DNA from: a virus
Taxonomy: Duplodnaviria; Caudoviricetes
Direction: 5' to 3' (one strand)
Length of the DNA stretch: 64,000 nucleotides
IMG/VR virus record: IMGVR_UViG_2835547190_000003
Coordinates: 768-64,767 of that record
Position numbers and translations under genes: made by a program. Shown one piece after another: positions 31,373-60,806 of the stretch. The notes beneath the pieces are model-generated. The model was not told the DNA's origin. It saw only the letters and a program-made list of their open reading frames with translations, and made no database searches. Each line of letters starts with the position of its first letter. The stretch's first letter is position 1.

Positions 31373-32935
31373 TCACATAATTAAAAGGCCGCGGCCTTTG
31401 CGGTAGACGGATTCTTTCGGCTCCCCGGTCTCATAAGTGCCCGACGCGCCCACGGCCATTGCCAGCGCTACAGCACCGTCAATACGCCCACGAGATTTCT
31501 GCTTATCCAGTTTTCGGTTGCCAGACGGGTCCACCTTCACAGTGGAGTTCATCATGCACATATTCAGCAGCGGATGTTCCCCATGCGCCAGTCGCTTATT
31601 GAGGATCATTTCCTCCAAGGACCGCAGCGCAGGCGACATTGAGGCATAACCCTGCCCAAACTGCTCGAATATGGCTTCATCACCCTCTAGATCGCCCTCA
31701 CTGAACCCGGCCTTAAGTAGCCACGGCTTGAAATGGCGCCAGTTCCATCGGTCAAACGCTATCTTACGCAGGTCAAGCTTCTGATGAAGATCGAACAGGT
31801 AATGAGCGACGAATTCGTAATCGACGGTTGGGCCGTCTGGCGCTTCAAGAAAACCTTGATCGTGCCAAACATCATAAGGCACGCGATCATCTTTCGCCTT
31901 CTGCCGCAACCCGTCACCGGGAAGCCAGAACGTCGGACGCACATGCCAGACACCATCTTTCGGCGCCATCAGCACCAAAGCGGTCAAGTCGCTAACTTCC
32001 GACAAGTCCAGCCCACCGAAGACCGGCAGACCTTCAAAACCTGCCAGATCAGCAGTACCGCACTCTTTCCAAACCGCTGGCGTCACAAACGGGGCGGATG
32101 CGTCAATGCGCTGATTTAAATGCAACCATCGAAAGCTTGCTTCCGCCGTAGGCTGTCGCGCTGCGCGAGCCGCGAAATCACGAACATCGCTTACCGCTTT
32201 GAATATACCAAGCGCCGGATTAGCCGCCTTCCACGCATCTTCATCTTGCAGGTCGCACTCCGCCGGGGCGGTATAAACATGGCTAACAATACGGGGGTCT
32301 TTGGAAGTTTCAGCATCATCAAGCCAGCGACTGAACAAATCGTTGTCGGTTGCGGCCTGTGTCGAAATGGCGATTAACAGCGCCAAGCCTTCATAGGCAC
32401 CTTGCGACGTTTCAATCGCCTCAACGAAATCATCATGCGGGCCTTTAACCTGGCCGACCTCATCGAGGATCGCCAAAATTGGGCTGCCACCGTGAGCCGT
32501 CGCAGCCTCTGCTGAAATAGCCTGGTATTCAACGTTCTTAGCGTAACCGATAATGGTTTTGCTGGATGGAACGCACTTCGCCAGCTTACTCAACTCCGGC
32601 GACATCATAATCATTTTGCTGGCGTAGTTAAAAACTTCGGCAGCCTGTTTGCGTGAACGAGCGCCTGAAATAATGCGGCTGTTCTGATACGCCTCCGGGC
32701 CAACGATGTGAGCAAGAAGCAAGCATGCGATGATCGCCGTTTTTCCGTTCTTTCGGGCAATGGACAGATAAGCCCGCGATGTGCCGCTGGGGTTGTCGTA
32801 AATATCCAATATGAACCGCTTTTGGAACGGCAAAAGCACCACAGGCTTACCCAGAAGCGTGCCTTCCGGCACGATGCAATATCGTTCGATAAACGCAATA
32901 ACACGCTCGCCGCGAGTCATGGTCCTTCGCTTCAT
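31373..32935 (-). CDS. terL: Terminase large subunit
   Basis: ARKNGKT Walker A, ILDE Walker B, GGLDLS, RIDGAVA. Confidence 0.95.
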   Translation of the reverse strand: MKRRTMTRGERVIAFIERYCIVPEGTLLGKPVVLLPFQKRFILDIYDNPSGTSRAYLSIARKNGKTAIIACLLLAHIVGPEAYQNSRIISGARSRKQAAEVFNYASKMIMMSPELSKLAKCVPSSKTIIGYAKNVEYQAISAEAATAHGGSPILAILDEVGQVKGPHDDFVEAIETSQGAYEGLALLIAISTQAATDNDLFSRWLDDAETSKDPRIVSHVYTAPAECDLQDEDAWKAANPALGIFKAVSDVRDFAARAARQPTAEASFRWLHLNQRIDASAPFVTPAVWKECGTADLAGFEGLPVFGGLDLSEVSDLTALVLMAPKDGVWHVRPTFWLPGDGLRQKAKDDRVPYDVWHDQGFLEAPDGPTVDYEFVAHYLFDLHQKLDLRKIAFDRWNWRHFKPWLLKAGFSEGDLEGDEAIFEQFGQGYASMSPALRSLEEMILNKRLAHGEHPLLNMCMMNSTVKVDPSGNRKLDKQKSRGRIDGAVALAMAVGASGTYETGEPKESVYRKGRGLLIM

Positions 32936-33396
32936 TCAGGTCGCGCCAATAAATCATCGTCGAGCGGGCTGCCTGCCTCGATCTCTTTTGCAGTCGCACG
33001 ACGCTTCGCCACATCTCTGCTTTCTCCCGCTTGCGCACGCGCGTGAAGCGACAACGACCGGCGAAAGGAGAGGATCGAACTGGCGTGCATCTGGACCAGA
33101 CTTTTGCGCGGGTTAACCACGGGTGTGCCTTTTTCAGAGTAGGCAATACCGCCCTCGCCCCGTAATAAATCCTGCTCGCGCACTAAGTCAGCCATCGTGC
33201 GGGCCAGCATTGCGGCAAGCTCCAATTGATGTGCTGACCATTCAGAACGGGCGTATTCAGCAATCACATTTTCAAAAAATGGAATATCTTTTTCATCAAG
33301 CGGCACATTATAAGGATGGGGGATTTCATTTGCCGCCTTACCCATAACGCGCACGGATTCAGCAGCGCTATCAATACGCGCTTTGCGCTTAGCCAT
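32932..33396 (-). CDS. terS: Terminase small subunit (P27-like)
   Basis: Directly upstream of terL; VVNP motif. Confidence 0.8.
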   Translation of the reverse strand: MAKRKARIDSAAESVRVMGKAANEIPHPYNVPLDEKDIPFFENVIAEYARSEWSAHQLELAAMLARTMADLVREQDLLRGEGGIAYSEKGTPVVNPRKSLVQMHASSILSFRRSLSLHARAQAGESRDVAKRRATAKEIEAGSPLDDDLLARPE

Positions 33397-33558: not shown

Positions 33559-33852
33559 TCACTCAATGGGGTATCCGTCATCGCCGAGCCGAATGATCTT
33601 CTGCCCAAGCTCTTCACGCTGCTTATCGCTGTCGTGGCATCGCTTGCATAGCGGCTGCAAATTCGACCCATCCCAGAACATGGCCTCATCGCCCTTATGT
33701 GGTGTGATGTGGTCTACAACGGTGGCAGGCTCAACGTCGCCCGCACGAAGACAGTACATGCAAAGCGGTTGCTCGGTTAGGATGCGCTCGCGGAGTCGCT
33801 GCCAGCGAGCGAGCTTATAAAGGCGCTGCCAAGGGCGAGCGTCATTGGACAT
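33559..33852 (-). CDS. HNH endonuclease (cos-packaging associated)
   Basis: PLCxxC..VVDHITPHKGD..NLQPLCKRCH; adjacent to terS. Confidence 0.9.
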   Translation of the reverse strand: MSNDARPWQRLYKLARWQRLRERILTEQPLCMYCLRAGDVEPATVVDHITPHKGDEAMFWDGSNLQPLCKRCHDSDKQREELGQKIIRLGDDGYPIE

Positions 33853-33916
33853 GATACACCAAATAGTAACCCGCCGGGGTGCGCTTCCATGGAGAGGCGG
33901 GGCAGGTGTTGTTGAT

Positions 33917-33993
33917 TGGTTGCGGCAGGTGGGATTTGCACCCACGACCTCCTGGTTATGAGCCAGGCGAGATAACTACTTCTCCACTCCGCA
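33917..33993 (-). tRNA. tRNA-Met(CAT), initiator-like but atypical
   Basis: Cloverleaf with anticodon arm CCTGG-CTCATAA-CCAGG, T arm GTGGG-TGCAAAT-CCCAC, encoded ACCA end. Confidence 0.85.
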
Positions 33994-33997
33994 GAAC

Positions 33998-34074
33998 TGG
34001 TCAGGGATGATGGATTCGAACCACCGTCTCGCGGGTCCAAGCCGCGAACTTTAACCAGACTAAGCTAATCCCTG
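33998..34074 (-). tRNA. tRNA-Pro(TGG)
   Basis: Acceptor CAGGGAT/ATCCCTG, anticodon arm CGCGG-CTTGGAC-CCGCG, TTCGAAT loop, ACCA end. Confidence 0.9.
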
Positions 34075-34079
34075 TTAAT

Positions 34080-34738
34080 AGACTGCTCCACGTAGAAGGC
34101 TTGAGCGCCGTCCTTCTACGCAACCGCGTAATCGCGCGCTGGCGCGCATCGAAGCAGAGGCCGGAGCAAAGACGCGGATGACATGAGCAGAGCCGCAGAC
34201 ATAAAAACTAACCGCGGCGCGGGAGCCAGAATAACTGACTACAACCGCGCCGCTATCCCGTCTGCTGGAGGAGAAAACAGCGCCGGGGATAATGGATAAG
34301 CCACAAGACACCATTTCACGCGTCGCGCCATAAAGGCCGGTGACTGCGCTACTTCCGCATCGCGGAGGGTCGGCGACTTATTCATGAATAAGTGGACGCG
34401 TAGATTAACGTGGCAGCGCCCAAGCCACATCATAGAGACAGCAAACGAACGACCGTGCACGGCCTTTTCAGCATCCGGGTGCCCATGGTTGTCCCGACCA
34501 CGATGTGACGGTCGCCGCTCCTGCGCATAATGCAGACGGGTTGCGCTCATCCGTATAACGATACTGCGTTTGCTGTTGGCGTCAGCGGCCCATGGGTAAC
34601 TGTGCTGCAAGTGCAGCGTCCATCGCCTGCCGCTGAATAGTTACCCCACACTCAGCGGCTGCAACGAAGTGCAGCATGGCGCAGGGTCCGCTCGATGGCG
34701 GAAACAGTGTGGGGCAACCACAATGGCGGCTGAACCCC
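34080..34738 (-). ncRNA. Putative large structured RNA / late-operon leader
   Basis: No convincing ORF; dense nested 6-13 bp helices (see findings); strand inferred from the adjacent tRNAs and promoter. Confidence 0.6.
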
Positions 34739-34741
34739 TTC

Positions 34742-34772
34742 ACTATACTCCGCACGAGATCGCGTTTTATGG
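34742..34772 (-). promoter_or_regulatory. Putative late promoter
   Basis: TATAGT -10 (34742-34747) without canonical -35, right after a putative regulator gene. Confidence 0.4.
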
Positions 34773-34774
34773 AC

Positions 34775-35689
34775 CTATGCCGCGTATTTTTTTATTGCGG
34801 CGGCAAGGTTGTCATTAGCCGCGAGCAATGCCCGCTTACCGCCTTTTCTACGCGAGTACTCTCCAGCCATACCGATTGACTGGCCCACATCCTTGTAAGT
34901 TTTCGCCTCCAGTGCGGCATCAAGCGCATCTCGGTCCCGGTCTTTTAGTTCCTGCAAGGCGTCAAACCAGACGTCTCGATCAATCATCGCTGACAGTGTG
35001 TCTTCCCATTTTTCACCGCCACCGCCAGCGCAGGTTGTTTTCCTCATGCCGAGGAAACTATCAGCAGCCTTCGGTGAGCCGCACGGCAAGCCCTTCGGGA
35101 AATGCGTATATGTAACTTTCTCCATATCGGTATTTGCGTAAGCTTCAGCCAATATCGCCTTGGATTGCTCCGCGGTGTAATTCTCGCCGTTGCGCCTTTT
35201 ACCATTCGGAATGTAACGGTGCGGGGCCGTACTCAACATATCCTCGAAATACTGGTTGCTGGCCTTGATTTCTTGTGGGTTCGCATCGCCACCAGAAACA
35301 CGGTCAGGCTTATCTCGCATCCCCATCATCGCACCCGCTGGCATTCGTATGTCTGCCTGAATGACCTCGCCGTCGATACCTGTCACGTAGCCCTTCTCTG
35401 TCAACCGTCCATCGCTGAAGCGCAGTCGACCAATGCGCACAATCTGACCATCGCTATTGCGCTCAATGTCGTCTGTTGCAACCTGCCGCATGATTTCCTG
35501 TACCGATGGCGTCTGCCTCCAATCCCGCTCATATCGCATATCGGCAACCTCCTCTGGATCGGCATTGTCATTTGCTGTGGCCACGGCCCAGTTGGTTTGC
35601 AATGGCTCAAATTTTTCTTCTGGCCTGCTGCGATACGCCTTCAATGCCTGAAGCTGATCGGCCATCGACCCGCGTCTGTTTTTGCTCAT
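34775..35689 (-). CDS. Putative late-gene transcription regulator (C-terminal sigma-region-4-like HTH)
   Basis: ALQELKDRDR..KTYKDVGQSIG; last early gene before the late operon. Confidence 0.55.
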   Translation of the reverse strand: MSKNRRGSMADQLQALKAYRSRPEEKFEPLQTNWAVATANDNADPEEVADMRYERDWRQTPSVQEIMRQVATDDIERNSDGQIVRIGRLRFSDGRLTEKGYVTGIDGEVIQADIRMPAGAMMGMRDKPDRVSGGDANPQEIKASNQYFEDMLSTAPHRYIPNGKRRNGENYTAEQSKAILAEAYANTDMEKVTYTHFPKGLPCGSPKAADSFLGMRKTTCAGGGGEKWEDTLSAMIDRDVWFDALQELKDRDRDALDAALEAKTYKDVGQSIGMAGEYSRRKGGKRALLAANDNLAAAIKKYAA

Positions 35690-60284: not shown

Positions 60285-60506
60285 TCAGGGTTGCCATAGC
60301 CACCGACGCGCTGCGGACGATTTTTGCACGTAGCAACAACGACCCGCTTGGCACCAGCAAAGTCAACGATATGCGCCGAATTGCGGAAGAAGCGCTGGCA
60401 AGGCTGGGCGAGCACGGAAGATAGCGACGGGGCGGCAAAGCCCCCCCCATACCCCTCTTTTTTGCGCGCTCACCAAGCGCACCACCCCGACCATGAGGAG
60501 ATTTTT

Positions 60507-60806
60507 ATGCGTAACCACAACGCCAACCGCCCGCGAGCCAGAAGACACGGAACAAGTAAGGCAAAGCCCAAAGTATACCGCACGCCAGAGCGCATCTTGA
60601 CCGCCGCCGAGTTCCAGGCGCAAGGCACCAGCGCCGCAGCGGTTCTGTCAATCGCCAATCTGCACGCACCCAGAGCCGCCGACGAATTGCGCAAGACGGC
60701 AATTGAGCTTGCCCGCATGACCGGCGAGCCTCTTGGACGGGGCTTGACGCAGGGCGGCGCGAAGCCCGCCAATGACAACCGTACGCCAGTACGGAGGGCA
60801 GCGTGA
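60507..60806 (+). CDS. Basic hypothetical protein
   Basis: CATGAGGAG leader; ends PANDNRTPVRRAA. Confidence 0.7.
   Translation: MRNHNANRPRARRHGTSKAKPKVYRTPERILTAAEFQAQGTSAAAVLSIANLHAPRAADELRKTAIELARMTGEPLGRGLTQGGAKPANDNRTPVRRAA

Follow-up and report, generated by a model that had tools for sequence, protein, structure and literature searches.

The put RNAs of phage HK022 are cis-acting antiterminators, two stem-loops of ~70 nucleotides (nt) that need no phage protein; the c4 antisense RNA of phages P1 and P7 is processed by ribonuclease P (RNase P); and the GOLLD and ROOL RNAs are conserved phage RNAs of 500-800 nt. In lambdoid phages the Q gene is followed by the late promoter and a leader, by transfer RNA (tRNA) genes and then by the late genes. 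Here we describe a conserved structured RNA motif of ~120 nt that occupies one end of a 700-nt gap in a 64,000-nt stretch of viral DNA (IMG/VR record IMGVR_UViG_2835547190_000003, positions 768 to 64,767; the whole stretch is called the window below, and all coordinates refer to it). The gap is an untranslated stretch separating the last replication-side gene, which encodes a 304-amino-acid (aa) protein of the phrog_36072 family, from the packaging genes, and this part of the window reads, on the minus strand, 304-aa gene, gap, tRNA-Pro, tRNA-Met, HNH endonuclease gene, terS and terL. A preliminary description of the gap had proposed one densely base-paired RNA of ~660 nt, with GOLLD and ROOL as comparison. 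We find that the 660 nt are not one conserved RNA; beyond the motif, the other ~540 nt are exchangeable spacer modules.

The likeness of the motif to each of these systems is partial. In common with put it is a phage multi-hairpin RNA that follows a gene, precedes a long operon and has no coding capacity, but it is ~120 nt long with three helical units, it always lies beside a gene for a protein resembling region 4 of sigma factors, and it sometimes abuts a tRNA; by eye its architecture differs from those of put and nut, and it has no Rfam match, though the coverage of put and nut by Rfam is uncertain. The lambdoid late region offers a similar succession of regulator gene, short non-coding leader, optional tRNAs and late or packaging genes, whereas here the upstream protein has no Q-family match in Pfam, PHROG or NCBIfam, neither a conserved promoter nor a conserved terminator was found near the motif, and the conserved object is an RNA structure. 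Like c4, the motif would be a regulatory phage RNA released from a larger precursor, with RNase P as a plausible maturation enzyme, but it matches no Rfam model, that of c4 included if present, and no antisense target for it was identified. With GOLLD and ROOL the motif shares a location in phages and prophages, with tRNAs nearby in 48 of 69 testable contexts, but it is conserved over only ~120 nt and again matches no Rfam model.

The extent of the motif is seen in its relatives. A blastn search with the 700-nt gap against 50,697 phage records matched three, Sinorhizobium phages NV1.1.1 and AP-16-3 and Rhizobium phage RHph_TM3_3_14B, in each case within query positions 12-139 and where no feature is annotated, and other motif copies used as queries against the phage records found no further record. 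Among 400 genomes of the host's bacterial family 15, the window's own included, matched the gap, eight of them over the same ~130 nt and the others in short unrelated pieces; in a subset of relatives the similarity reaches about query position 339. At loci fetched by way of the upstream protein the motif stood directly after that gene in all 21 (18 viral contigs and three genomes). A covariance model, R1, was built from an alignment of 15 of the 25 distinct copies, near-identical ones having been dropped; the loci for R1 were fetched by a pattern of invariant boxes (96 stretches), and the model matched 94 of 100 sources at an expect value (E) of up to 0.001, representing 69 distinct sequences. 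A looser pattern applied to viral contigs gave 120 stretches, six of them real by R1 and one of these (L055) on the same contig as another copy (L030), and a metagenome scan gave at least eight real copies among the 118 stretches listed, at least four of which are new. A further 400 genomes from the same class, searched with the pattern, gave no match. The motif is conserved in 16-3-like temperate phages and in prophages of the host's bacterial family. A weak R1 match elsewhere in the window (60414-60520, 15.9 bits, E 0.014) is without the motif's boxes and was taken as chance.

When the window was scanned with the 4227 families of Rfam 15, only the two tRNAs passed the gathering score and nothing in 34075-34774 was matched at E up to 10; six other motif copies likewise gave no match, among ribozymes, riboswitches or other families, at E up to 1. 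Thus, while the gap does hold an undescribed, structured RNA on the strand of the phage genes and ahead of the tRNAs and packaging genes, as had been proposed, only ~120 nt of it are conserved, the remainder is mosaic, and a giant RNA of the GOLLD or ROOL type is not what is found. We regard the motif as a new family within a familiar class of RNAs, the conserved non-coding RNAs of phages.

The window copy encodes, on the minus strand, an RNA domain of three helical units: P1, which holds an inner hairpin; P2; and P3, which closes P4 (Table 1). RNAalifold predicted 25 pairs from the 15-sequence alignment, 10 of them with compensatory changes. Across the 69 distinct copies, 92.9% of 1705 pair cells hold standard pairs, a share that falls to 82.3 +/- 0.5% with partners shuffled among sequences and to 31-43% with partners slid by 1-3 columns; both sides change in 17 of the 25 pairs (22 of 31 with the outer P1 helix included), and the covariation score is 0.304 against 0.118 in shuffles, none of 500 reaching it. 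The covariation among homologues that the preliminary description had named beforehand as a test is therefore present in the 120-nt core. The window copy (34635-34753) folds at -55.5 kcal/mol, with a z-score (z) of -3.84 on the minus strand, where one of 200 shuffles was as good, against -1.23 on the plus strand. G-U pairs are common, and since they would be A-C on the opposite strand they fix the RNA as minus, the sense strand of the phage genes, which had previously been judged from context.

The three outer pairs of P2 are paired in 93.6% of cases and all three change on both sides, one pair of P3 takes six pair types, and P4 comes in four covarying versions while its loop accepts an insertion of 25-30 nt in some copies. 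The outer P1 helix is only ~65% paired in fixed columns because its register differs between subfamilies (pair 10-93 is AU in 26 copies, GC in 11 and UA in 5), and a register-free comparison, for which 66 of 69 rows were usable and gave 52 distinct pairs, gave cognate duplexes an energy of -5.62 kcal/mol; with swapped partners the value was -3.74 +/- 0.24, and none of 300 swaps went as low. It is this helix that contains the TATAGT (34748..34743, minus) formerly read as a -10 element: the sequence is there, but it is the 5' strand of a helix whose other strand is the CACUGU that directly follows P1, the two strands covary, and it is not a conserved promoter element. A further helix that had been pointed out, 34640-52/34706-18, also exists (13 nt, 92%) but is peculiar to the window copy, where it is an alternative to the conserved P3 pairing; in relatives the same 3' segment pairs with the stretch following P2. 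Some 35 unpaired or loop positions are invariant in the 15 diverse copies, and the three-unit architecture is kept in the 69 distinct ones. The invariance of the tail GUAACUA was observed in the 15-sequence alignment, the search pattern having required it thereafter.

The motif shows no conserved protein-coding signal of the kind that had been named as speaking against an RNA: the TAA within GUAACUA falls in the three frames of the upstream open reading frame (ORF) in a ratio of 23:23:19, without fixed phase. Two coding candidates were tried and rejected. A short ORF opening at the invariant CAUG stops, in several copies, inside the hairpin insertion or enters a tRNA, and for a frameshift or read-through extension by way of the A AAA AAA run before the upstream stop the motif frame is open for anything from 1 to 96 codons in 65 contexts.

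The remainder of the gap is of another character. The whole 700 nt fold at -293.4 kcal/mol on the minus strand, against -272.7 +/- 5.8 for 20 dinucleotide shuffles (z -3.55), and with z -2.22 on the plus strand, but piecewise folding, with 200 or 100 shuffles, shows the excess to be local. Outside the motif it is found in 34205-34300 (z -3.82 minus, -4.15 plus), while 34436-34580 (0.06 and -0.05 on the two strands) and 34075-34204 (-0.20 and -0.76) show none, and the 560 nt 3' of the motif together reach -1.61, 5 of 100 shuffles being equally good. Dense pairing over 660 nt was accordingly an overstatement, as there are two structured modules (34635-34753 and 34205-34300) amid ordinary spacer, and the expected excess over shuffles holds modestly for the gap as a whole. 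That the 660 nt are not a single conserved RNA follows from the mosaic nature of the rest, which is shared piecewise by different subsets of relatives. The helices that had been listed all exist in an inverted-repeat search of the gap: 34091-99/34112-20 (9 nt), 34214-22/34245-53 (9 nt) and 34318-24/34395-401 (7 nt), each at 100%, a palindrome at ~34371-34398, 34438-56/34558-76 (19 nt, 79%) and 34450-56/34508-14 (7 nt, 100%); the 6-nt pair 34084-89/34163-68 lies under the threshold of the search and is readable directly in the sequence.

The surroundings of the motif are constant on one side and variable on the other. In 94 copies the order is VRR-NUC-like gene, phrog_36072 family gene, motif, spacer, HNH, terS and terL, and four new metagenome copies have the same order; in the window too the 304-aa gene is preceded on its 5' side by a VRR-NUC-like gene, joined in relatives by a primase gene. 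In all 67 distinct ORFs a distance of 16-27 nt (median 22) separates the upstream stop codon from the start of the model, while the HNH start follows the motif at anything from 221 to 2230 nt (median 906). In 81 distinct contexts the first tRNA is within 2 nt of the motif in 11, 3-300 nt away in 14 and further away in 23; in 21 none precedes HNH, and 12 loci do not extend far enough to show whether one does. Of the 11 abutting tRNAs, the ten that were inspected are tRNA-Met, and the earlier suggestion that tRNA processing releases the RNA is plausible. What comes after the tail differs by subfamily, being a tRNA, a hairpin GCAAGGCAG...CCUUGC, a hairpin with GUUACCC, or unrelated. In the window itself ARAGORN finds two tRNAs only, none of them on the motif, and together with Pfam and PHROG it confirms the context of tRNA-Pro, tRNA-Met, HNH and terS that had been described.

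Identity of the motif to the window copy is correlated with that of the phrog_36072 protein (Spearman 0.83, n 69) and of the HNH protein (0.62, n 66) and not with that of terL (-0.20, n 47), and similar modules of regulator and motif are joined to at least three unrelated types of terL, with ~25%, 41-49% and 71-91% identity to the window's. As motif identity tracks the upstream protein and not terL, these comparisons put the motif in one module with the upstream gene rather than with the packaging genes, and the unrelated terminases behind similar modules place the recombination junction in the spacer after the motif.

The 304-aa protein has no Pfam match, PHROG lists family 36072 as of unknown function, and a protein atlas returned only clusters of hypothetical proteins. 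An AlphaFold2 model computed from 53 of 67 family ORFs (near-duplicates, and three known only from GenBank stretches, having been dropped) has a mean predicted local distance difference test (pLDDT) score of 70. In this model residues ~223-304 superpose on sigma-factor region 4: Foldseek matched 3hug (SigL region 4) with probability 1.0 and a template modelling (TM) score of 0.76-0.77, and VIA-align gave Z 8.9 and a root-mean-square deviation of 2.7 A over 77 residues, with sigma factors in 23 of the 24 top rows; an NCBIfam sigma70-ECF match is below threshold (E 0.0062, 16.2 vs 42.9 bits). For residues 46-222, refolded from 46 sequences without the seven most divergent, nothing among 48,161 chains exceeded Z 2.7, and BFVD gave no match with E under 0.001. 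From the model the protein may plausibly be a transcription factor that binds DNA, or else one part of a sigma-like factor.

Two features of its C-terminus stand out. Lysine is encoded by AAA in 80 of 96 cases in the last eight codons of the 67 family genes, against 352 of 1249 (28%) elsewhere, a bias that argues for a constraint at the nucleotide level on the A-tract found there, which may be the -10-like part of a promoter. The C-terminus itself (34775-34822, minus) ends in ...AANDNLAAAIKKYAA, and the permuted transfer-messenger RNA (tmRNA) of the host, situated away from the locus on contig C40, encodes the tag ANDNKAQGYALAA. ANDN occurs within the last 25 residues in 58 of 67 family ORFs, starting exactly 14 from the end in 42, and 35 of the 67 end in AA; there is a second ANDN near the N-terminus. 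By sequence this looks like a built-in mimic of the ssrA tag that would send the regulator to ClpXP, and ssrA-like tags on phage regulators are known in mycobacteriophages.

Table 1. Coordinates of the motif, its parts and the neighbouring features in the window.
Feature	Position	Strand	Description
Conserved structured RNA motif, 119 nt	34753..34635	minus, sense to phage genes	covariance model R1, 110.9 bits
P1 domain	34746..34704	minus	outer helix 34746..34741 (AUAGUG)/34709..34704 (CACUGU), conserved unpaired GAA, inner helix
P1 inner helix	34738..34734/34715..34711	minus	GGGG(U) with (N)CCCC, closes hairpin of variable length (34732..34715); 94.5% paired
P2 hairpin	34702..34687	minus	UCCGC/GCGGA here; CCG/CGG helix, inner part of variable length among relatives
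P3 helix	34686..34679/34651..34644	minus	long; 88.4% paired, 6 of 11 pairs change on both sides
Internal loop between P3 and P4	within 34686..34644	minus	CAUG and CYSCUGAR on opposite sides, both invariant
P4 hairpin, 6 base pairs	34675..34670/34663..34658	minus	99.5% paired, 4 of 6 pairs change on both sides
Tail GUAACUA	34644..34638	minus	invariant, predicted single-stranded (consensus fold)
Hairpin module after motif	34634..34583	minus	inverted repeats; includes GUUACCC (34600..34594), complement of the tail
Spacer module A	34578..34438	minus	88% identity to L190, L202 and L248 (three to four loci)
Spacer module B	34297..34214	minus	hairpin with UUUCUCCUCC loop (34290..34255), GC-rich hairpin (34253..34214), U-rich tail
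A-tract, seven A	34793..34787	minus	within the last codons of the phrog_36072 gene
700-nt gap	34774..34075	minus	between the 304-aa gene and tRNA-Pro
phrog_36072 gene, 304 aa	35689..34775	minus	PHROG E 4.8e-112; stop codon 22 nt before the motif model
tRNA-Pro(UGG)	34074..33998	minus	ARAGORN; Rfam tRNA 62.3 bits
tRNA-Met(CAU)	33993..33917	minus	ARAGORN; Rfam tRNA 53.3 bits
HNH endonuclease	33852..33559, start inferred	minus	Pfam HNH, PHROG HNH
terS	33396..32932	minus	PHROG small terminase
terL	32935..31373	minus	Pfam TerL_ATPase and TerL_nuclease

From these comparisons we tentatively infer that the motif regulates the late operon as an RNA, in concert with the neighbouring regulator, and that it is probably excised from a precursor transcript, a reading we prefer while regarding it as far from secure. 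Transcription would run through from the phrog_36072 gene or begin at a promoter within the 3' end of this gene, and the motif would stand at the head of the untranslated leader of the late operon (tRNAs, HNH, terminase). Where tRNA-Met abuts, RNase P would cut the motif from the precursor, and elsewhere a single-strand-specific endonuclease might cut at the invariant tail; the motif would then help to control the late genes jointly with a protein, for which the sigma4-like regulator or RNA polymerase itself is the likeliest candidate. Several points weigh against this reading. Three raw RNA sequencing runs under the same species label gave no read on the stretch, and seven contig pieces of a further run, of a kind only guessed at, matched it, neither result being a test of expression. 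The alignment behind the pair counts was fitted to R1 and hence favours structure, and many of its rows are close relatives whose counts are not independent events. Since the motif and the upstream gene are 22 nt apart, linkage alone could explain the correlation between them. The 70 nt before the motif are without conserved promoter hexamers, with less than 1.1 bit per position everywhere; the sole sigma-70-like match is ATGACA-18-AAAAAT at 34815..34786 (minus), inside the end of the gene. Hairpins resembling intrinsic terminators are not enriched between motif and HNH (12 sense vs 9 antisense in 57.9 kb, occurring in 10 of 62 contexts), which leaves a terminator-override role without a visible target. 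Nor can RNase P be what sets the 3' end throughout, as 21 of the 69 testable contexts lack a tRNA ahead of HNH. A more specific form of the same idea, that the RNA and the sigma region-4 protein constitute a ribonucleoprotein late-gene switch, in which the RNA would be a cofactor or scaffold loading the half-sigma-like protein on the polymerase or, alternatively, the RNA site that this protein recognises, as nut is for N, has in our view a slim chance of being right; in both cases it would make a class of RNA-dependent control of late transcription so far undescribed in phages.

Among the alternatives, a purely cis-acting processive antiterminator of the put or nut type, with the nascent RNA staying on the polymerase while it runs through the 0.2-2.2 kb leader and the late operon against Rho and intrinsic terminators, is rather unlikely, though the likeliest of them. 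It would suit a compact multi-hairpin RNA with conserved loops, placed at the early/late boundary in the orientation of both gene blocks, and the DNA between motif and HNH, 221-2230 nt without a protein-family match where tested, would make a long untranslated leader of the kind that Rho, which terminates untranslated transcripts, normally stops. The missing enrichment of intrinsic terminators tells against it, as does the absence by eye of any likeness to boxA or boxB, and put and nut action needs the RNA to remain tethered to the polymerase, a tether that RNase P would sever in the 11 of 81 contexts with an abutting tRNA. Another alternative is a trans-acting small RNA, derived from the 3' untranslated region (3'-UTR) or linked to the tRNA, that would pair with host or phage messenger RNAs (mRNAs) through GUAACUA or a loop independently of the neighbouring protein. 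Small RNAs of 3'-UTR origin begin right after a stop codon, as the motif does, RNase P can set a 3' end, and the single-stranded tail is invariant; yet we consider this reading distinctly unlikely, as most copies lack a terminator hairpin and U-run at their own 3' end, the complement of the tail, TAGTTAC, is at chance level in the 64-kb window (two occurrences, one of them the motif itself, with 2.07 expected), 7 nt are short for a seed, and the many invariant bases of the internal loop suggest tertiary structure or recognition by a protein.

A further alternative is a passive processing or stability element, which would shield the 3' end of the upstream mRNA from exonucleases or serve as punctuation between the early mRNA and the precursor of tRNAs and late genes. 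The constant distance to the stop codon and the stable fold would agree with such an element, but a hairpin would suffice for it, and the invariance of so many unpaired positions together with the upkeep of three units makes it improbable. Covarying helices around invariant junction nucleotides are also typical of riboswitch aptamers and self-cleaving ribozymes, and GUUACCC downstream can pair with the tail, overlapping the end of P3, in 9 of 81 distinct contexts, the window included (GTTACY, 21-36 nt after the motif). With no match to a ribozyme or riboswitch in the Rfam scans and no constant expression platform, since the tail is followed by a tRNA, by one of several hairpin modules or by unrelated sequence, we hold an undescribed ligand-sensing aptamer or ribozyme to be very improbable. 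We give the least credence to the idea that the conserved object is not an RNA at all, being instead a DNA-level site (operator, packaging or replication signal) or a short coding or frameshift extension. P4 is admittedly an 18-base-pair palindrome-like site beside the gene of a DNA-binding protein, and the A AAA AAA run stands at the end of that gene; but the frequent G-U pairs, the acceptance of an insertion in the P4 loop while its stem covaries, the random frame of the tail's TAA with open frames of any length, and a motif divergence unrelated to the type of terminase all speak for RNA.

The outcome is a sharply defined RNA with a tested secondary structure and a candidate protein partner, and it corrects the annotation of this region, where none of the three GenBank records has a feature and where what looked like a giant RNA of 660 nt is a mosaic. 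Motif and phrog_36072 gene occur together in Sinorhizobium phages AP-16-3 and NV1.1.1 and in Rhizobium phage RHph_TM3_3_14B, all cultured or inducible in non-pathogenic laboratory hosts, which makes the question directly testable. In the portions of the literature available to us, PMC10460002 included, we found no account of a non-coding RNA or of late regulation in 16-3-like phages, nor any description of how the late genes of these temperate phages of rhizobia and their relatives are switched on. As far as its text was available, PMC10690425 (2023) reports 8495 unnamed candidate structured RNAs of 29-151 nt from IMG/VR, the same data source, likewise with covariation in intergenic regions of viral contigs; that catalogue may contain the motif, and the text available describes none like it.

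The spacer downstream of the motif has features of its own. Within 34582-34659 (minus), UCAGCGGC, directly following the tail, can pair either with the conserved GCCGCUGA in the motif's internal loop or with another GCCGCUGA that lies 40 nt further downstream; a single relative inspected by eye is without this alternative pairing. A hairpin of ~60 nt, GCAAGGCAG...CCGUUCCUUGC, lies directly after the motif in 16 of 81 contexts across subfamilies (L190, L198, L004, L139 and L189 among them) and is not present in the window. Spacer module A was compared with three relatives in the frame of a 123-aa ORF (34610..34239, minus) that has no Pfam, PHROG or NCBIfam match; synonymous and non-synonymous changes number 8:4, 7:6 and 6:5, with an insertion or deletion, and a stop in one relative. 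The earlier statement that the gap holds no credible ORF thus mostly stands, a weak synonymous bias being left in 34578..34438, and by sequence the module may be a remnant or a very short gene.

Module B (34297..34215) is shared with a different set of loci from that of module A. Its UUUCUCCUCC loop motif recurs in 23 of 81 distinct contexts on different covarying stems, often 30-40 nt before the first tRNA; the loop resembles the anti-Shine-Dalgarno (SD) sequence and has no Rfam match at E up to 10, and a small RNA or an SD-sequestering element is possible. Past the tRNAs, a hairpin at 33869-33906 (minus), between tRNA-Met and HNH, matches the abiF RNA motif below threshold (26.2 vs 37 bits, E 0.041). 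The stretch 34196..34170, which is not an Rfam RNA, is 96-100% identical over 27-31 nt to intergenic chromosomal sites in five other genera of the family and, judged by these matches, may be a short dispersed repeat.

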